Assembly (NCBI GenBank): GCA_001931535.1
Contig: CP016211.1
Location: 4,631,573 to 4,695,572, forward strand
From: Minicystis rosea
Lineage (GTDB): Bacteria > Myxococcota_A > Polyangia > Polyangiales > Polyangiaceae
Length of the DNA: 64,000 nt
Reading direction: 5' to 3'
Position numbers and translations under genes: made by a program. Below are positions 6,006 through 16,137 of the stretch, piece by piece. The notes under the pieces are model-generated. The model did not search any database and was not told where the DNA came from. It saw nothing but the letters and a program-made list of their open reading frames with translations. The first letter of the stretch is position 1. Each line of letters begins with the position of its first letter.

Positions 6006-6690
6006 TCACGCGCCCCCGACGCTGGGGCTAAACACATCGGGGCTCGCCGCGTTGCGCGCCATGAACGCAAAGAGCCGCTCTCGCATGGCCTTCATCTCGC
6101 CCTTGCTCGTCGCGAGGAGCCGCTCCCGCCGATGAAATAGGTGACCATGCCGAAATCGATCGGCTGGTGATCCAGCGCGACCCGCTCGAGCGGGCACCGG
6201 AGGTCGGGCGTCTGCATGAACCCGGTGTGGACGAGCACCGGTGCATGCCGCGCCCGAGATCGCGCACTTCGACGCTCTCCTCCAAGGGAACGCGGGGGAC
6301 GTGCTCGGTCAGCACCGTCACGAGGAGCACGGTGTCGTGGAGCGCGCGCGTGCTCCGCGTGGTGCAGCAGGATCGAGGGATGCCGATCGGGGTCGCGGTA
6401 AGGAATACCGCGGTCCCCGGTACGCGCCGCGCGCCGTCGGCAAGGAGCCGCTCGAACCAGGCACGCGAGCGCATCGCCGCTTCGCGCAGCCGTCGACCGA
6501 GCAGCACGCGGCGGCGCTTCCACGTGGACATCAGCGAGAACACGACGACGGCGGCGACGAGGGGGACGTAGCCGCCCTGTACGAGCTTGGTCAGGTTGGC
6601 GCCGAAGAAGGGCAGGTTGAACGAGAGCAAGAGCAGGAGCACGGAGAGTGCTTTTGCCAGGGGCCAGCCCCAGCTCTGCCGGGTGACGAG
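6006..6690 (-). pseudogene. kup: Kup/HAK/KT potassium transporter, C-terminal third only, with at least 2 frameshifts
   Basis: Three minus-strand frames give consecutive Kup C-terminal motifs: RQSWGWPLAKALSVLLLLLSFNLPFFGANLTKLVQGGYVPL...TWKRRR...VPGTAVFLT; then PSILLHHAEHARA / LHDTVLLVTVLTEHVPRVP; then HTGFMQTPD...FGMVTYFIG / WRERLFAFMARNAA. No N-terminal 12-TM core lies upstream. Confidence 0.65.
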
Positions 6691-6719
6691 AAAGCGCGGC
6701 GGGGGCGCGGATCGGTCAT

Positions 6720-7062
6720 CAGCGCGCTCGACCGAGAAGTCGTGCGTCGCGCTCGAACGCCTCCGGAATGGGCTCGGGCGCGCCGCGCGGCAACCCTCTC
6801 GAGATCTCGTCGTAAGGGCTGGGATCGGGCGGATCGACGACGATCTCGACCAGCACCTGATCGAACAAGCGCAGGAGCTCGGCGTCGGCGTGGAGCTCCG
6901 CGCTCCATTGCTCGACGGTCAGCCCGTGCTCGGCGCAGGCGCGCCGGACGATCTCGCAGCCCCCGGCTCCGTCTCGCGGACGATCCCGCACGCCCGGTCG
7001 GCGACGATCGCCTCCTCGATGTCGAGGATGACAGCCCCAATGTCTGCTCGATCGACGTCCAC
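6720..7062 (-). CDS. Hypothetical protein fragment (possibly frameshifted)
   Basis: Minus-strand GTG 7062 gives VDVDRADIGAVILDIEEAIVADRACGIVRETEPGAA, then a +1 frame gives EIVRRACAEHGLTVEQWSAELHADAELLRLFDQVLVEIVVDPPDP. Codon usage is gene-like but there is no recognisable family. Confidence 0.2.
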
Positions 7063-7311
7063 GCCCTCTGTTCAGCAAACGGCGGACCGCGCGCTCGCAG
7101 CGCTCGTGGTCATGGCCGCTGGCCAGCCTGGGCACCGACGGGCTCCCCCATTGCCATCGGGGGATTCGACACCACAGCCACGACCGGGAGAGGAGCCAGG
7201 CACTGGCGAGCTGACGAACAGCGCACCCGTTTCCGTGCCGCCGGACACCGACGTGCAGAATGCGGCGGCGACGAGAGCAGCCAGAGCGCTTCGGCCGCGA
7301 GGGAAAGCGCC

Positions 7312-9318
7312 ATGAGAACCGTCGAGTCGATCCACATCGATCCCGTCCACGATCGCGACCCCAAGAACCTCGCAGCCGACGCCTCTGCCTTGCGCGCCCT
7401 CGCGCAGGCCGCCGTCAGCGTGGAGCTGTTCACGATCCCGCTCTACATGGTGCCCTTGTACTCGATTCAGGGCATGCACCAGATCAACGCCTCCGAACAG
7501 ACGTTCTACAAGGGACGCTGGTGGCCCGGGGCAGCAACGACGCACTCGCCGACGAGCGCCAACGAGCGCGCCTTCAACATCCTCTTCAGCGTCTTCATCC
7601 AGGAGATGCTGCACCTCCAGCTCGCCGGCAACCTCGCCACGAGCATGGGCGTCACGCCGACCTTCACCAGCTCGATCCTCCAGACCGAGAGCGATGGCTG
7701 GAAGTGCTTCGGCCCCGACAACACCGTCATTCCCCACATCATCGATCTGCGCGACACGACCACCGTCACCGATGTCAAAGTCGCGCTCGGACCGCTGAAC
7801 GCCGCTCGGATCGAGCTCTTCCTCGCAGTCGAGGCGCCGGAGGGCCAGGCCAGGCAGCGCATCAATCCCGACAAGCTCGACGAGTACTTCCCCGCCGTGC
7901 CGTTCGCCGGCTGGAGCTCTGACATGACCGAGGCCGATCTGCCGATGTTTGGGACCATCGGATACATGTACGAGTGCATGGTTCATTACATGACCATGCG
8001 ATATAGCGACGGGACCACGCTCTGGCAGCACGTCTATGCGCCGAGCTCGGTCCAGCGCGAGCTGTTCAACACGCCGACCGGCGGGCACCCCATGCCCGAG
8101 TACCCCGGCATCTCGGCCGTGCTCCCGACGATCGGCGCGGAGGAGGCGCTCGGCGCCGCGGTCGACATCATCAGCGCGATCACGGACCAGGGCGAGGGCC
8201 GAACGATCACCCCGCCGCTGCGCGCGGTGCTGCTCGGCCACGGGGAGGCGCTCGCGTCCCTGGCAAACGAGGTCGCGACCGACTACCGCTCGTCCCGCAA
8301 GGGCCTGACCATCGATTACCCGAGCTACGACGACGACGGCCACCTCGCGCCCTCTGCAGACGCAGAAGCTCGCTTCGAGAACGACCGCAAGGATCACTAC
8401 GCGCGCATCCTCGAGATCAAGGAAGAGCTGCTCCCCGAGCTCGTGACCTGGGACGCGTGGCACGCCTCGCGCGGCGCGGCCCCATGGACGGCCAGGGACC
8501 TCACGATCGGCGACACCGACGAGGCCAGTGGCAACATCCCCAGGGCGGCCGAGGTCGCCGCGGCGCTGAGCCGGCTCAAGGCCAAGAACGCCGACGGCAG
8601 CGTGCTGCGGCAGCTCAGCCAGGTCGCCGCCGGCGCCATCGCCGGGGTCACCCGCGCGCTCGATGACTATTGGAAGGACCCGAACGTCGGTTTTCCCTAT
8701 CCCTCGATGGCCGGCTCCGGAGATCGCGTGTCGATTTGCTGGGCCGTGCTCGGCCAGGCCCCGGACCTCGCGCTGGGCATCGAGCAGCCCAGAAAGCACG
8801 CGCTCTATCACGCCTGCCAAGGCCTCGACCTCGAGCACCCCGGCGCCGGCGAGATGCCCGCGGTCACGACCTACCACACGTGCAAGGGCTCGAACGCCTG
8901 CAAAGCCCAGGGCGGTTGCGGCTACGTGCAATCGGTGGAGGGCGGCGGGAGCTGCCGCGGGGGCGGGGGCGGGGGCGCGACCAGTTGCGGCACGACCATC
9001 ACGTCCCAGGCGAGCTGCGGCCATCGAGGGATGCTCTACAGCGCGCCGACCGACAACAAGTGCGGTGCTTTGGGCGGCTGCGCCGTCCCCGTCTCGGCCT
9101 CGCAGCTTTACCCGTCGAGCGGCGAGATGGCGCTGTTCGACATCAAGGCCGACGGCCCGCCCAAACCCATCGGCACGATACCATTCACCTACGGCGAGCC
9201 CGTCTACGACGTCGCCTGGAGGGCCTATTGCGAGGTCCTCAGGGCGCGCGGCGAGAGCCCGCCGAGCGCGCCGCCTCCCGCCGACGATCTGCGTCTGGCC
9301 TTCCCACCCTCGACATGA
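7312..9318 (+). CDS. Ferritin-like (PF12902-type, ExxH di-iron motif) domain protein with a C-terminal 11-Cys module; candidate substrate/partner of the DUF692-DUF2063 enzymes
   Basis: ATG 7312 with a GAGGGA RBS, 668 aa. N-terminus: [25 protein letters not shown]...[17 protein letters not shown] (ferritin-like helices, ExxH). C-terminus: [96 protein letters not shown]. No signal peptide. The stop TGA overlaps the start of the next gene (ATGA). Confidence 0.75.
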
Positions 9319-10235
9319 CGATGGATGCTGCCCGCCTCGGTATGCCCCACCTCGGCTTCGGTCTCGGGCTCCGGTCATGCCACTTCCACCATCTGCTCCG
9401 GCACCCGGCCCGGGTCGATTGGTTCGAGATCATCAGCGAGAACTTCATGGATGATCACGGCTTCGCGCGTCACGTGCTCTCGACGCTGGCGCGCTCCCAT
9501 CCGATCGTCATGCACGGCGTCTCGCTTTCGATTGGCTCGTCCGATCCGCTCGACATGGACTACCTCGCTGGGCTCCGCGCGCTCGCCGCGTGGATCGAGC
9601 CCTCCTGGATCTCGGATCACCTCTCCTGGACCGGCGTGGCCGGGTACAACACCCACGATCTGATGCCCATGCCGCTCACCGAGGAGGCCCTGGATCACGT
9701 CGCCGAGCGCGTGCTCCGCGTGGAGGACTTCATGGGGAGGCCGCTCGTGCTCGAGAACCCGAGCACCTATGTCGAATACGTCGCTTCCACCATCCCGGAG
9801 TGGGAGTTTCTGTCCGCGCTCTGCGAGCGGACCGGCTGCGGCCTGCTCCTCGACGTGAACAACGTCTTCGTGTCGTCGTTCAATCACGGTTTCGACCCCG
9901 AGCGGTACATCCAGGGCCTGCCGCACGATCGGATCGTGCAGATCCACATCGCCGGCCCGACGTCTTTCGACCGCTACCTCGTGGACACCCACGATCACCC
10001 CGTGCCCACGCCCGTCTGGCGCCTCTATCGCTTGGCGCAGGAGCGGACGGGCGGCGTCTCGACGCTGCTCGAGTGGGACGCGGCGATCCCCGCATATCCG
10101 GATCTCGTCGCCGAGCTCGACAAGGCGCGCGCCGTGCTTGCAAATCCGCGCGAGCTGCCCGACGTGCCGCTCTCGGGCCCCGTGCGCGACGACACCCCCA
10201 TGACTCACGGAGTGATTCATGACCTCGTCCCGTGA
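9315..10235 (+). CDS. DUF692 (UPF0276) TIM-barrel protein, MbnB/HvfB/BufB/TglH-like multi-iron peptide-modifying enzyme
   Basis: [28 protein letters not shown]...[14 protein letters not shown]...[18 protein letters not shown]...[11 protein letters not shown]...[12 protein letters not shown]...[19 protein letters not shown]...QIHIAGP is the canonical DUF692 motif series. It is translationally coupled to the upstream gene. Confidence 0.85.
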
Positions 10236-11172
10236 CGGCGCGCTGTCGCTCTCCGCGCTCCAGGACTGGCTGCGGCTCGCGGTGACCACGCCAGGCGGCC
10301 TCACCGCTGGGCTACGCCGCGCGCGCGAGCGCTACGGCGAGGCGCGGACGATCTGCGTCCCGGAGGGCGCCGACGCGGGTGAGCGGCTCTCGATCTACGC
10401 ACGCGGTTACGTCGATCGCCTGCTCGCCTGTCTCCGGGCCGACTATCCGGCCGTGCGCGCGCTGGTGGGCGACGCGCTCTTCGATAGCTTCGCGACCGGC
10501 TACTTCGGGACACGGCCGCCGCAGCACCATAGCCTCTTCATGCTCGGCGCCGGCTTCGCCGACCATCTCGAGCGGACGCGCCCTCCCGACGATGTCCTGC
10601 CCGAAGAACAGCGCTCGCTCGTGCGGCTACCGATCGATCTCGCCCGCGCCGAGCGGGCCCGGATCGAGGCGCTCCGTGCGCCGGGGCTCCCGAACGACGA
10701 GGGCGCGTGCGTCGATGAGCTCCGCGTCGTGGCCGCGCCGTGCCTGCGGGTGGTCGCGCTTGGGCACGACGTGCGCGGCTTCCTGTCGGCCGTCGATCGC
10801 GGCGAGGCGCCCGCCGTTCCCGAGGCGCGGCCTTCGCTGCTCGCCGTCAGCCGCGTCGCGTATCGGCTCGTGCTGGCCGATCTCGCGCCCTGGCAGCAAC
10901 GGGCGCTGGCGAGCTGCGGCAGCCCGCGTTCGGTGGTCGCGCTGGCGGAGGAGGTCGCTGCTGCGTCGGGCGAGGACAGGGGCGCGGCGCTGGCGGATCT
11001 CCTGCTCTGGCTGCCCACGGCAGAGGGGCTCGGGATGGTGTCGTTGACGCGCAACGGTCCGGCCAGCGCGCCCTCCGACGGTCACTCCCATGCCGGACCT
11101 GCACGAGCACACCGCCTCCTTTTCGATCTGGTCCCAGTCTTCGCCCCAGCCCCGCTCCCTGGCGCGCGGTGA
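10219..11172 (+). CDS. DUF2063-family protein (HvfC/BufC/MbnC-like partner of DUF692 enzymes)
   Basis: ATG 10219 overlaps the DUF692 3' end by 17 nt. [61 protein letters not shown] matches the conserved N-terminal DUF2063 core. The C-terminal half is divergent. Confidence 0.8.
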
Positions 11173-11181
11173 ACGACTCCT

Positions 11182-11300
11182 TTAGAGCCCGAGGCTGACG
11201 GTGTTCACCGTGACTCCGCTGCTCGACAGCTCCGCCGCCAGGCTCACGGTCATGTTGATGATGGCCGCCGGTAGCTCTGCGCCGAACATCGAGCGCGCCA
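11182..11300 (-). pseudogene. Short-chain dehydrogenase/reductase internal fragment (about 40 aa)
   Basis: The ORF 11182..11676 C-terminus reads AELPAAIINMTVSLAAELSSSGVTVNTVSLGL then a stop. It resembles the SDR YxxxK / NAVSPG region but lacks the N-terminal and C-terminal parts. Confidence 0.25.
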
Positions 11301-11548
11301 TCGATCTCGAGATGGCGAAGCGCGGCCCACGAGGTGGCCAATAGACGATGTGCGGAACTCTGCGATTGCTGACCTGCGCCTTGGCGCGGCGGAATTGACG
11401 CCAGGGGTCACGCTCGCCCCGGCGGGTGCTGACGATCGAGCCGCTCGGAGGCCTTGCGCACGGTCTCAAGAGCGCGACGCACGCCGGGCGTCCACGCCGC
11501 CAGATCGACCCCGAGCGTGAGGCCGGCACGAGCTCGCAGCTCGTTGAG

Positions 11549-11640
11549 CCTCGGTACCAGGTATCTGCCGCTCGGTACCAGGTGGCGATACCCGGTGCGG
11601 AGCGGTATCCGATACCCGGTACCGAGCGGGTATCCGTTCG
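11549..11640. repeat. Palindromic GGTACC/GGTATC-type tandem repeat locus A
   Basis: ctcggtaccaggt occurs twice with a 21-bp period, followed by gcggtatccgatacccggtaccgagcgggtatccg, which holds a GATACCCG / CGGGTATC inverted repeat. Related to loci B and C. Confidence 0.6.
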
Positions 11641-11721
11641 GGAAGCCTTATGCCGGGGCTCGTCGGGATGGGACATGGGTGGACGCTGCTATCCAGCGTC
11701 CAGCGCGATGGCAAGGCGGCG

Positions 11722-12948
11722 CTACGGCCGGAGCGTCACCGGGGTCGCGTCGACCTTGATCCGAAACAGCGCGTACGGCCCCTCGCGGAGATCGCGCCCC
11801 TCGTGGTACTCGGGCTGGCGATCTAGCTGGTTGACGGTCACGTAGAGATACCCGTCGGTCGCCAGGGCGAGCGTGTCGGGCCAGATGAGGCGCGGATCGG
11901 AGACGAGGATCTCGTCCGTGCCGTCGGCCAGCCGGCGGTGGATGGCGTGGTGCTCGTAGTCGGTGAGGTAGAGGCGCCCCTGCCGGTCGGACTCGAGCCC
12001 ATCCGACGCATAGCCGATGTCGCCGTGATCGATCACGGTGTAGCCGACGTCGTCCTCGCTCACCGACTCGTTCGCGAGTGCATCCGTGGAGACGCTGTAA
12101 AGGTGGTGGCTCATCAGCGGGCGGTAATACAGTGTCTTCCCGTCCGCGGAGATCGCGATCCCGTCCGCGCCCACCTTGGGCGCGGTCGTGATGCCGCGCG
12201 GCGATCGGCGGAGCAGGGGCGCTCCTTCCACCCTGGCGACGAAGCCCGGATCGGCCTTCGTGGACGGGTGATCGTGGAGCCGCCGGAAGGCGTGGCCGGT
12301 GGCGATGTCGACGACGATGATCGCGTTGGGCCCGCGCGCCGCCGAGTCGGTGACGTACGCCGTCCCCTCCTCGCCGCGCGTGAGATCGAAGCGGATGTCG
12401 TTGAGGTACGAGGTGGGGAGCGCCACGTCCGGCCAGAGATGGATGATCTGCGCGGCCCGGTTTTCGCGGAGATCGACCACCACCAGCTTGGGCGTGTCTT
12501 GCAGGTTCTCGCGCCAGTTGATGTTGCCGGAGTCGACGAGCCAGAGCCGATTGATGGGGTCGACGACGGCGCTCTGCACGGAGACCAGCCGGAAAGGCGC
12601 CTTTTCCTCGTCGAGCTGGTTCATGCGGAGATCGGGGATGGGCCGGAGCCATCCACCGGTGAGCTCGGCGGCGGTGAGCGCCACGGGATCGTTCCAGCGG
12701 GGGAACGAGAGGAAGATCCGCTGTTCCTGAGACACCGTGATCCCCGTGGGCATGGCCCCGGTGAAGAAGGCCACGGGCTCGAGCGCGTCCGAGAGCGGGC
12801 CGCGTGCGCCCGCGGCGCGGGCCAGCTTGGTGGCGTCATAGGGAATCGTGGATGGCTTGGCCGTCGTCTGCTCGCCGCTCTGGCACGCCGCGAGGGCCAG
12901 GACTGCCACCGGGAGAACACGTGACATCGGATGTCTGGAGGGGCTCAT
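11722..12948 (-). CDS. Major royal jelly protein / yellow family (PF03022-like) lipoprotein
   Basis: ATG 12948 (AGGAAAA 8 nt upstream), 408 aa. MSPSRHPMSRVLPVAVLALAACQSGE carries a lipobox. Beta-propeller-like repeats (WLVDSGNINW..., AYVTDSAARGPNAIIVVD, LYLTDYEHHAIHR) are typical of MRJP/yellow proteins. Confidence 0.7.
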   Translation of the reverse strand: MSPSRHPMSRVLPVAVLALAACQSGEQTTAKPSTIPYDATKLARAAGARGPLSDALEPVAFFTGAMPTGITVSQEQRIFLSFPRWNDPVALTAAELTGGWLRPIPDLRMNQLDEEKAPFRLVSVQSAVVDPINRLWLVDSGNINWRENLQDTPKLVVVDLRENRAAQIIHLWPDVALPTSYLNDIRFDLTRGEEGTAYVTDSAARGPNAIIVVDIATGHAFRRLHDHPSTKADPGFVARVEGAPLLRRSPRGITTAPKVGADGIAISADGKTLYYRPLMSHHLYSVSTDALANESVSEDDVGYTVIDHGDIGYASDGLESDRQGRLYLTDYEHHAIHRRLADGTDEILVSDPRLIWPDTLALATDGYLYVTVNQLDRQPEYHEGRDLREGPYALFRIKVDATPVTLRP

Positions 12949-13507
12949 GGGCTTTTCCTGCTCATGGCAGGACCATGCAACGCCCAGGCCGAGCGAGCGG
13001 CCCCGGCGATCGGTGCGACGGAAAGCCGAGCGCGTCAGCGATAACGCTCGTACGGCGCGTCGATGCCTCTGTCGCGGACCTCTTCGAGGAAGCGCCACAT
13101 GTCCGGCTGCGAGCCGTCGACGTCCGTGACGCCGTACTCCCCCGCGAGCTGGCTGGAGGTGAGCGAATGCTGGTTCCACCGCGCGGTGGGCGTCGGAAGC
13201 CAGCGCGACGACCGCGCGCCCCGCGTAGCGCGGCGACTCGGAGAGCGCGAAATCGGGGGGCGCGTGGCCCTTCAGGGCGTCGCGCCAGTTGTCCTCCTTC
13301 ACGCCGAAGGCCTGGGTCGATTATTGCGGCGCTGACGCCACCGGCCGCTTTCTGCTGCAAGAAAACTCCGGATCGAGGGCGCGATCGCCAACCTGCTGTT
13401 CGGCGAGCTCAAGGCCCCAATTCGCACGCTCCAGAGAAACATTGCGATTCGTCGCTGCACCCGTCTCTGGTCATGCCGAGCCACCGGGCGAGAGCATCGA
13501 TCCCCCA

Positions 13508-14470: not shown

Positions 14471-15222
14471 CGACCACGGCGCGCTTCGTCACCCTCGACG
14501 CCGGCCGGGAGCCGCTGGCCTTCGCCGGGGGCGACCTGGCCGTGGGCCTGCACGCCTGCGGCGCGCTCGGCGATCGGCTGGTGACCGCGGCCATCGCCGC
14601 CGGCTGCGACGTGGCGCTCGTCTCCTGCTGCCCGCAGAAGATCGACGCCCCGGTCCGCGCCCCGCTCTCGCGCGCCGGCGCCTCGCTCCACCTCCGGCGG
14701 GAGACGCTGGGCCTGGCCAACCTCACCGCACGGCCCGTCGGCGTGGAGACCAGCCTGGAGGCCACCCTCGCGGCGCGGGAAGCGCGCCACGCGCTCCACC
14801 TCCTGCTCCGCGGGCGAGGCGTGACCCTCACGCCGGGCGAGGAGATGCGCGGCATCAACCGCCGTCGCGCCCACGCCGGCCTCGCCGCCCCGGCCCTCTC
14901 GATGCGCGGCCTCCCCCCCGCCGGCGACGCCGAGCTCCGCGCCTTCGAGGCCGAGGCCCGCCGCCGGTACGCCCGCGTCCGCCGCCTCTCCCTCCCCCGC
15001 AACATGCTGGCCCGCCTGGTGGAGCTCGCCGTGGTGCTGGACCGCGCCGCAGCGCTGGAGGAGCACGGAGCCGCCGTGCCCGTCCTCACCATCTTCGACC
15101 GCGCCGTCACCCCCCGCAACGTGGCCCTCTTCGCCAGCCACGCCCCGACCGCCTCCCCTGACGCCCGCGACGCTGCGGTGGTGGAGGTGATCGGTGGGGC
15201 GCGCGCTACACTTCGCCTCGAC
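14410..15222 (+). pseudogene. Class I SAM-methyltransferase (Methyltransf_32-like), C-terminal remnant
   Basis: Frame 1 from just after the stop at 14407-14409 reads ...AFAGGDLAVGLHACGALGDRLVTAAIAAGCDVALVSCCPQKI... (a GLHACG motif). The N-terminal SAM-binding part is missing. Confidence 0.4.
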
Positions 15223-16137
15223 ATGGGCGATCCGCTGACCGACATCTTGCAGCTCACGCGGGCGCAGTCCGTGATCACCGGCGGCTTCGCGGTCGGTGGG
15301 GACTTCGCGTTCCGGTTTCGCTCGCACGCGAAGATCAAGTTCTACAGCGTCGACGGCACGTGCTGGCTGCGCCGCGGGACCGGGACCGACGCGGTCGAGC
15401 TGGAGCGCGGCGACGTGCTCCTGCTCACGAGTGACGACAGCTTCGTGCTCGCGAGCGGCCTGGGCGTCCCTCCGGTGGAGGTCTGTCCCGTGTTCGAGAG
15501 CCATCCCGGGGGCGTCACCGCCGGCGCCGGCGCGACGTGCTCGCTGCTGGTCGGCGTGATCTCGTTCGACCCCGCGTTCGCCGACCTGCTGGGCGACGCG
15601 CTGCCTCCGTTCGTCCACGTCCGCGCCGCAGCGCCGGAGTCCGCCGCGCTCCGCTGGATGCTCGAGCGGATCGAGCGCGAGCAACGCGCGCGGCTGCCCG
15701 CGGCGGGCGCCGCGTCCGCCGAGCTCGCGCAGCTGGTGCTCATCGAGGCGCTGCGCGCGAGCGCCGCCGAGGGCGAGGCCCTGCGGCCGGGCTGGTTCCG
15801 GGCCATGCGCGACGAGCGGGTCGGCCGCGCGCTGCGCCTGATGCACGGCCGACCCGACCACGAGTGGACCCTGGCCGAGCTCGCGCGCGCGGCGGCGATG
15901 TCGCGCGCATCGTTCGCGGCCCGGTTCAAGGCGGTCGCGGGCGCGGCGCCGCTCGCGTACCTGACGCAGTGGAGGATGCGGCTCGCGCGGCGGGCGCTCC
16001 GCGACGGCGACGCCTCGGTGCTCGAGATCGCGCGCTCGCTCGGCTACGCGTCGGAGAGCGCGTTCAGCCACGCGTTCAAGCGCGAGACCGGGCTCGCGCC
16101 GCGCCACTATCGCGCCGCAGCCGCCGGCGCGAGCTAG
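15223..16137 (+). CDS. AraC-family transcriptional regulator with an N-terminal cupin_6 domain
   Basis: ATG 15223. MGDPLTDILQLTRAQSVITGGFAVGGDFAFRFRSHAKIKFYSVDG...(cupin_6 signature)...ESAALRWMLERIEREQ...MSRASFAARFKAVAGAAPLAYLTQWRMRLARRALRDGD...SESAFSHAFKRETGLAPRHYR (AraC HTH). Confidence 0.8.
   Translation: MGDPLTDILQLTRAQSVITGGFAVGGDFAFRFRSHAKIKFYSVDGTCWLRRGTGTDAVELERGDVLLLTSDDSFVLASGLGVPPVEVCPVFESHPGGVTAGAGATCSLLVGVISFDPAFADLLGDALPPFVHVRAAAPESAALRWMLERIEREQRARLPAAGAASAELAQLVLIEALRASAAEGEALRPGWFRAMRDERVGRALRLMHGRPDHEWTLAELARAAAMSRASFAARFKAVAGAAPLAYLTQWRMRLARRALRDGDASVLEIARSLGYASESAFSHAFKRETGLAPRHYRAAAAGAS

Follow-up and report, generated by a model that had tools for sequence, protein, structure and literature searches.

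A BufA2-like cysteine module at the end of a ferritin-like protein as a probable substrate of an MNIO and DUF2063 enzyme pair in Minicystis rosea

Background

What does a cysteine-rich module do at the end of a ferritin-like protein, and is it a substrate of the enzymes that are encoded directly behind it? This question is raised by a gene of Minicystis rosea that lies in a stretch of 64,000 nucleotides (GenBank assembly GCA_001931535.1, contig CP016211.1, positions 4,631,573 to 4,695,572 of the forward strand). This whole stretch is called the window below. The gene codes for a large fusion protein that starts with a ferritin-like PF12902 domain and ends with the module, and it is followed by genes for an MNIO (DUF692) and a DUF2063 protein. 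Judging from sequence relationships and gene order, we consider it rather probable that residues ~495-668 are a Cys core of the bufferin/captophorin type, which has lost its Sec signal and has been joined to a PF12902 protein that probably holds a di-metal site. A preliminary description of the same DNA, made from the letters alone, had already drawn attention to the module.

Bufferins and captophorins are counted among the most numerous classes of peptides that are synthesised ribosomally and modified after translation (RiPPs) and, to our knowledge, have so far been viewed as small, Sec-exported, periplasmic copper chelators. The usual fourth gene of a bufferin operon is DoxX. For PF12902 we know of no function, and its only solved relative that we are aware of is an orphan structural-genomics entry. 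The chemistry has been described for two enzyme pairs: BufB and BufC convert Cys residues of the Sec-exported BufA1 and BufA2 into copper-binding 5-thiooxazoles (PMC11626156, Leprevost et al. 2024), and FonB and FonC likewise turn Cys into 5-thiooxazole, more than 24,000 MNIO-DUF2063 loci having been grouped as 'captophorins' (PMC13097082). Antoine et al. 2025 listed 'adjamnio-I' proteins as plausible new precursors (PMC12452194). What we say about the latter article refers throughout to the accessible parts of its text and supplements.

Results

Gene order around the fusion gene

The surroundings of the fusion gene were compared across 89 related genomic and metagenomic loci. The next gene on the same strand codes for an MNIO in every locus with at least 300 bp of downstream sequence (78 of 78, the median gap being 39 bp), and a DUF2063 gene is present in every locus with at least 2 kb (60 of 60). 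The fusion gene is the first gene of a tightly coupled three-gene operon, which codes for the fusion protein, a BufB-class MNIO and a DUF2063 protein, and this cassette is kept as a unit in at least four phyla (Myxococcota, Pseudomonadota, Bacteroidota and Cyanobacteriota). In the related loci we were not able to find any short Cys-containing open reading frame (ORF) conserved within 500 bp, nor any protease or transporter gene conserved in or beside the cassette, and no other family of flanking ORFs occurs in more than 7 of the ~90 loci. Since the linkage to MNIO and DUF2063 is strict and no other ORF is conserved, the cassette is self-contained, with the fusion protein as the sole candidate substrate that it encodes.

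The MNIO of the window matches PF05114 with 350 bits and passes the NCBIfam model NF050167 MNIO_BufB (348.4 bits, cut-off 310), and it does not reach the cut-offs of the other equivalogs, HvfB (245 bits against 360) and MbnB (48.4 against 325). It is the only DUF692 gene of the window, where the preliminary description had spoken of several such enzymes. The DUF2063 partner matches PF09836 (62.1 bits, cut-off 27.2) and stays below the HvfC equivalog (11.9 bits against 142). In Ralstonia the counterparts of the two genes carry the NCBI names 'MNIO family bufferin maturase' and 'HvfC/BufC family peptide modification chaperone'.

The window is 90.5% similar at the DNA level to Sorangium sp. So ce388 (locus L001, 7999-11764), and this similarity is confined to positions 7310-11051 of the window. 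It opens with the start codon of the fusion gene and stops close to where the DUF2063 gene ends, and nothing on either side is related; the three genes thus have different surroundings in the two genomes, through relocation or because they are paralogous.

Separate genes and other fusions

A search with the MNIO as query led to a Kitasatospora plasmid locus in which the Cys module (~215 residues) has a gene of its own, followed by an MNIO gene, a DUF2063 gene and a gene for a PF12902 ferritin-like protein. Three further loci are arranged alike (module, MNIO, HvfC_N/DUF2063, PF12902). In Actinomycetota the four parts are thus encoded by four separate genes. The MNIOs of these split operons are 58% identical to the MNIO of the window, which is within the range of the fused family. 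The stand-alone modules form a family of at least 328 clusters (141-239 residues, 8-11 Cys, no signal peptide, no Pfam match) from Streptomyces, Kitasatospora, Catenulispora, Actinomadura, Pseudonocardiales and Solirubrobacteraceae.

An exhaustive hidden Markov model (HMM) search with the profile of the stand-alone family returned 291 representatives, including shorter PF12902 fusions. One of these, P0388 (L098/L099, 5001-6524), has 507 residues with PF12902 at 21-264 and the module at ~350-471; it shows the same synteny with MNIO and DUF2063, so that several fusion architectures exist. We also found one fusion of the module to DoxX, P0493 on a metagenome contig (L097, 865-2097), with 410 residues and the sequence HVCCGLNTCKGEG...HVCQGLNACKGQGGCGEY...GACEVPL. 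Its gene stands between an MNIO gene, whose product is 59% identical to that of the window, and a DUF2063 gene, after which a FA_hydroxylase gene follows.

That the two parts are fused in some lineages and separate neighbours in others is classic (Rosetta-stone) evidence of joint action. The free module occupies the 'A' slot upstream of the MNIO gene, which points to the module as the substrate rather than to the ferritin-like part. The preliminary description had named the module the most plausible target of modification. We arrive at the same view from the constant MNIO and DUF2063 neighbourhood, from the precursor slot that the module takes when split, and from the lack of an alternative conserved ORF.

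Relation to bufferin cores

Genuine BufA2 proteins from plasmids read HCYGINACKGKNDC...NACKGQGTCKGKGF. The first motif of the module has the identical C-x-G-x-N-x-C-K-x4-C spacing and shares C-K-[GA]-Q-G-x-C...G-[FY] with them; the BufA2 pattern is seen in C524-x5-C530-x5-C536, where G, N and K also fall into register, and the remaining Cys differ. To compare the families as a whole we used profile-profile comparison (hhalign on trimmed alignments, with column-shuffled controls). The fused and the stand-alone modules were matched with Prob 98.5 and a score of 80.6 (shuffles 12 +/- 3), and HMMER linked them in both directions with 25-38 bits. The stand-alone family was in turn matched to the BufA2 core with Prob 94.9 and a score of 40.7 (shuffles 10.9 +/- 2.4, maximum 20). 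A comparison of the latter two on untrimmed alignments (Prob 99.6, score 148) was rejected as an artefact, as shuffled and reversed controls scored 127-130.

The module matches no known Cys metal domain such as a metallothionein or a zinc ribbon: no Pfam or NCBIfam match of any kind was better than E = 0.6, and no match to PDB sequences was better than E = 0.96. A known metal-binding domain that does not go along with DUF692 genes, the outcome that would have spoken against the preliminary description, is not what we see: no such domain was matched, and DUF692 co-occurrence is perfect in the 78 loci. From these sequence comparisons the module is best described as a remote relative of BufA2 that lacks a signal and is linked to it via the stand-alone family, and not as a BufA2 member.

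Conservation of the module and the N-terminus

The module contains most of the Cys residues of the protein: 11 are found within the 165 residues 476-640 (C476, C502, C524, C530, C536, C548, C559, C569, C584, C590 and C640), as compared with 2 in residues 1-475. Translation of positions 8800-9150 gives exactly the peptides that the preliminary description had quoted, and the 11-Cys module is real. In the vocabulary of PMC13097082, C524 and C530 are 'Cys-Lys' sites and K583-C584-G585 is a 'Lys-Cys-Gly' site.

A protein search returned at least 842 clusters of full-length homologues (98-100% query coverage, 629-767 residues) from Sorangium (89% identity), Myxococcus, Polyangiales, Ralstonia solanacearum, Chromobacterium, Pseudoduganella, Xanthobacteraceae, Spartinivicinus and Nostoc; other scans added Mucilaginibacter, Oceanospirillum, Oleiphilus and Pseudoalteromonas. 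In an alignment of 119-121 homologues with 45-89% identity, six Cys are invariant (C502, C524, C530, C536, C584 and C590), C476 and C548 are near-invariant, C569 is kept in 71%, and C559 and C640 are not conserved. Since these Cys are invariant across a large full-length family, the Cys pattern is more than chance. M1 is nearly invariant as well. The conserved text of the module reads, in order, LYHACQGL, [YF]H[TS]C[KRI]GSNxC[KRH]AQGGCGF, a linker, YSAPSDN[KR]CxxxGGCAVPISASQL[YF]P and a tail with the end RLAFPPST, in which R661, P666, S667 and T668 are invariant. In place of this end (residues 662-668, at 9295-9315) the stand-alone proteins have a comparable D-D-L-V-P-P-Y.

The linker, on the other hand, varies between 13 and 106 residues and between 0 and 10 Cys in 109 homologues, and 64% of its Cys precede a Gly. 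In three homologues it is expanded by GCG-type repeats: P0061, P0096 and P0097 have linkers of ~100 residues with 7-10 extra Cys, many of them in x-G-C-G-[HA] units, similar to repeat-type MNIO substrates. The preliminary description had seen a (GGG)6 run at ~8950-8970 as a potential slippage site. The run is in fact (GGGGGC)x3, and the idea of slippage finds no support, as the three closest relatives (87-89% identity) share the Gly6 and the entire linker is hypervariable across the family. In the R. solanacearum cluster of P0089, one member, P0516, has just 271 residues and is found on 38 contigs, which suggests a truncated copy of the fusion gene in some strains.

None of the 120 homologues listed has a signal-peptide-like N-terminus (25 by direct reading, 120 by hydropathy). 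In a crude hydropathy test, an N-terminal hydrophobic stretch (Kyte-Doolittle value >= 2.0) was found in 3 of 120 fused proteins, in 0 of 120 stand-alone proteins and in 119 of 120 BufA2 controls. The N-termini of the fused family are short, hydrophilic and variable, and are followed by a conserved first helix; in the AlphaFold2 model described below, residues 17-49 form helix 1 of the ferritin-like bundle with a predicted local distance difference test (pLDDT) score above 96. The absence of a Sec/Tat-type signal, as stated in the preliminary description, is thereby corroborated, and the fusion protein is probably cytoplasmic.

Predicted structure

The AlphaFold2 model of the fusion protein was built on 119 sequences and reached a predicted template-modelling score (pTM) of 0.90. 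Residues 1-500 form a confident helical body and residues 602-668 a confident beta-hairpin with a helix. Between these confidently folded parts lie the Cys loops with low pLDDT, which falls from ~75 to ~50 along motif 1 and is below 50 at residues 545-570. The Cys motifs of the stand-alone module are likewise predicted with pLDDT below 50. Such loops, which may be flexible or dependent on a cofactor, would be compatible with a substrate and with a metal site alike.

In the ferritin-like part, fused and split proteins alike have kept E38, E98-x-x-H101, E174, [DE]292-Q-x-E295 and H362. We infer from this a ligand pattern typical of carboxylate-bridged di-metal sites. In the stand-alone protein P0122, residues 16-38 are modelled as a helical hairpin ahead of the Cys core (pLDDT 85-93). 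This N-terminal hairpin of the stand-alone proteins may be a leader-like recognition element for the DUF2063 partner.

Features of the locus

The coordinates are collected in Table 1. The Pfam scan of the 668-residue protein gave PF12902 as the sole match, and the NCBIfam scan gave none. A scan of 6600-11900 for promoters and terminators returned no signal above that of shuffled sequences.

Table 1. Coordinates of the fusion gene, its parts and the neighbouring genes in the window
Feature	Positions	Strand	Remarks
Truncated Kup K+ transporter remnant	6028-6642	-	Directly upstream of the cassette
Shine-Dalgarno-like GAGGGA	7299..7304	+	ATG of the fusion gene 7 nt downstream; sequence reading
Fusion gene: ferritin-like domain, helical extension, Cys-rich module	7312..9318	+	668 residues, ~72 kDa
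PF12902 ferritin-like four-helix-bundle domain, residues 32-301	7405..8214	+	Pfam match
H362, conserved, in the helical extension beyond the PF12902 domain	8393-8395	+	
C-terminal module, residues 495-668	8794..9315	+	Homologous to stand-alone 'adjamnio-I' proteins of Actinomycetota
Motif 1: H500-A-C502-Q-G ... H522-T-C524-K-G-S-N-A-C530-K-A-Q-G-G-C536-G-Y	8809..8925	+	BufA2-like C-x5-C-x5-C, 'Cys-Lys' sites
Hypervariable Gly/Ser/Cys linker, residues 539-575	8926..9036	+	Holds C548, C559 and C569, mostly x-C-G
(GGGGGC)x3, Gly550-Gly555 (Gly6)	8959..8976	+	Translation
Motif 2: Y-S-A-P-x-D-N-K-C584-G-x-x-G-G-C590-A-V-P-[IV]-S-A-S-Q-L-Y-P	9037..9114	+	Columns invariant or near-invariant; Lys-Cys-Gly site inside
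Folded tail, residues 602-668: beta-hairpin and helix, near-invariant RLAFPPST end	9115..9315	+	AlphaFold2 pLDDT 78-91; conservation
MNIO (DUF692), BufB class	9324..10235	+	Starts 5 bp past the stop of the fusion gene
DUF2063 (HvfC/BufC-type) partner	10219..11172	+	17-bp overlap with the MNIO gene
Major-royal-jelly/yellow-family protein	11722-13302	-	Downstream neighbour
Cupin-AraC regulator	14542-16137	+	Downstream neighbour

The Kup remnant matches only Pfam K_trans 391-449 and K_trans_C 1-64, and the rest of the gene is missing. The two downstream neighbours are not conserved beside the cassette elsewhere.

Discussion

We think that the module is, with somewhat better than even chances, a substrate of the MNIO; the exact chemistry we hold to be less likely than this, and any particular physiological role much less likely. 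In the mechanism that we propose, the MNIO-DUF2063 complex would bind the flexible Cys loops of the module, and the MNIO, using O2, would turn some of the invariant Cys into 5-thiooxazoles, in the same way as BufB/BufC and FonB/FonC do. The best candidate sites would be C524, C530, C536, C584 and C590, because they have K/R or G as neighbours. The module is invariably found next to the iron enzyme pair responsible for modifying such peptides, so that its modification probably takes place within the large protein. The modified product would be neither exported nor released and would stay in the cytoplasm on the ferritin-like protein or, in Actinomycetota, beside it. There, a metal site made of thiols and heterocycles could cooperate with the ferritin-like di-metal centre, and its likely role would be the handling of copper or another thiophilic metal, or the defence against oxidative stress.

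Several observations speak against this proposal. Antoine et al. report that bona fide DUF2063 partners accompany precursors with a signal peptide (PMC12452194), and the fusion protein has none. The direct profile comparison of the fused modules with BufA2 is marginal (Prob 14, score 20.4, ~3.5 standard deviations above shuffles of 10.8 +/- 2.7), and HMMER links the stand-alone family to BufA2 with just 12-20 bits. The BufA2 model (NF050166, cut-off 60 bits) gave no match to the module at E <= 10, one homologue reaching 9.6 bits over 14 residues, and DUF2282/BufA1 (PF10048) gave no match either, at E <= 1 for the whole protein and at E <= 10 for the module. At the enzyme site proposed in PMC13097082 (BufB2 Asp251 / FonB Phe250) we find Asp in the BufB2 type, Gly in BufB1, Asp/Glu in the split type and Ala in the fused type; the position at which 'Cys-Lys' MNIOs are proposed to read the substrate Lys would thus be Ala and not Asp in the fused type, although this mapping is by alignment only and is uncertain. 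Finally, the six invariant Cys and two invariant His (H500 and H522), in C-x5-C-x5-C and C-x5-C patterns, could equally ligate Zn or Fe-S. The comparison with the DUF2282 and BUF_6/12Cys models had been put forward in the preliminary description, and in our hands the module matches neither. The statement made there, that the module differs from known bufferin cores, therefore holds in so far as it fails these HMMs; it does not hold for the Cys register of BufA2 and for the profile link via the stand-alone family.

Potentially, then, the module could be an unmodified Zn or Fe-S element, the ferritin-like protein being an accessory or tailoring enzyme of the MNIO pathway and the true substrate either a small molecule or a peptide whose gene lies elsewhere. 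Apart from the possible ligands, this would agree with the lack of a significant BufA1 or BufA2 match and with the failure of AlphaFold2 to place the Cys loops, as is often seen with metal-dependent folds. We nevertheless consider it rather unlikely, because split operons put the module gene into the precursor slot upstream of the MNIO gene and the ferritin-like gene last, because no other ORF, long or short, is conserved with the cassette, and because no known Zn or Fe-S domain was matched in Pfam, NCBIfam or PDB sequences. The relation of the stand-alone module to BufA2 at the profile level and the fusion of the module to DoxX point in the same direction.

Two further explanations keep the module as a substrate. 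It could belong to a classical RiPP with an oversized 'leader', in which the module or its x-C-G linker is modified and cut off its ferritin-like carrier, to become a free metallophore by release or export. The hypervariable linker, which sometimes grows into Cys-Gly repeats resembling repeat-type MNIO substrates, would fit this, and the stand-alone versions show that the module can be a small protein. However, there is neither a conserved protease or transporter gene in or beside the cassette nor a signal peptide on the module, the fusion to PF12902 recurs in several lengths, and residues 602-668 are conserved and confidently folded up to their near-invariant end, which speaks for a region that is integral to the protein; we regard a released metallophore as quite improbable. 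Even less probable seems to us the suggestion of the preliminary description that the ferritin-like domain delivers iron or oxidant in cis to the MNIO, for the modification of its own tail. It is true that the fold has conserved carboxylate and His ligands and that MNIOs require a multi-iron cofactor (PMC9060507, 10.64898/2026.07.17.739211), but more than 20,000 MNIO-DUF2063 loci do without a ferritin-like gene (PMC13097082), and BufB/BufC and FonB/FonC work by themselves in E. coli or in vitro (PMC11626156, PMC13097082). The split operons of Actinomycetota have the ferritin-like gene as a separate one in last place, so that this partner also works in trans, and such a position is more easily reconciled with a downstream user or partner than with an iron chaperone.

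How much of this has been described before? The stand-alone module is already flagged in the literature as adjamnio-I, and the stand-alone proteins WP_102907425.1 and WP_051467798.1 appear in Cluster_I of Table S1 (sheet Fig1D) of PMC12452194. In the accessible parts of its text and supplement there is no mention of a following ferritin-like gene, of the fused family or of a link to BufA2. The word 'ferritin' is absent from the texts and readable supplement parts of both PMC12452194 and PMC13097082, and accessions of the fused family and its MNIOs were not found in the partly covered supplements of the former. In the full-text literature we found no link between ferritin-like proteins and MNIO, DUF692, DUF2063 or bufferins, co-mentions of ferritin-like and DUF692 being set aside. 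As far as we have searched, with these supplements covered in part and without a comparison to adjamnio-1/-2 (Massilia, Hahella), neither the fusion family nor its ferritin-like partner nor the link to BufA2 has been described.

If the module is indeed an MNIO substrate, the bufferin enzyme pair acts on a large cytoplasmic protein and has an unnoticed fourth partner, the PF12902 ferritin-like di-metal protein, which would offer a concrete clue to what PF12902 does. 'Orphan' MNIO-DUF2063 pairs would be accounted for as well, for example in Sorangium cellulosum So ce56, which is listed in Table S2 of PMC12452194 with 5 MNIOs, 3 DUF2063 genes and no recognised bufferin precursor. More tentatively, and with some doubt on our side, RiPP-type chemistry might here serve the biogenesis of a cofactor, so that thiooxazole ligands built by the MNIO would form a hybrid metal centre within a 72-kDa cytoplasmic ferritin-like protein. 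Such a centre would place thiooxazole-bound Cu or another metal beside a carboxylate-bridged di-metal site and could have a catalytic or detoxifying function of its own; it would define a class of post-translationally matured metalloenzymes that hundreds of species possess, among them Ralstonia solanacearum, Sorangium, Nostoc and Streptomyces. The system occurs in tractable organisms (Ralstonia solanacearum, Myxococcus, Streptomyces and Nostoc).

Comparison with known systems

The closest known system is that of the BufA2 or BUF_6/12Cys bufferins with BufB2-BufC2 (PMC11626156; PMC13097082), which has the same order of precursor, MNIO and DUF2063, a BufB-class MNIO and six conserved Cys. It differs in that BufA2 is a periplasmic peptide of ~85 residues, whereas the module is C-terminal in a 668-residue ferritin-like protein that has no Sec signal peptide and is probably cytoplasmic. 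BufA2 lacks the second half-motif, DNKCxxxGGCAVP, and the folded tail, and the cassette of the window has no DoxX gene.

The adjamnio-I proteins (PMC12452194) are signal-less as well, have 122-293 residues with at least 8 Cys, are encoded upstream of an MNIO and are homologous to the module, but they stand alone and have no known domain, whereas the window protein carries PF12902. Precedents for a bufferin domain within a larger protein are Buf1|Cytochrom_C|FGE-sulfatase, MerC|Buf1 and MerC|Buf2 (PMC12452194). These have recognisable Buf1 or Buf2 signatures and are known from few instances; the fused family has hundreds of members, another partner domain and no signal. On the ferritin-like side, CC_0557 of Caulobacter vibrioides (PDB 3hl1) is a PF12902 protein of 282-317 residues with no Cys module and no assigned function.

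Finally, methanobactin (MbnA/MbnB/MbnC) and oxazolin/fontiphorin (HvfA, FonA) have in common with the proposed system that an MNIO oxidises Cys beside small or basic residues to give copper ligands. K583-C584-G585 of the window protein resembles the K-C-G of EGKCG, although it is a single N-K-C-G and there are no EGKCG repeats. On the other hand, the scores of the window MNIO for MbnB and HvfB are far below the cut-offs, there is neither an MbnC nor a conserved short Cys ORF, and the putative substrate is a large cytoplasmic protein.

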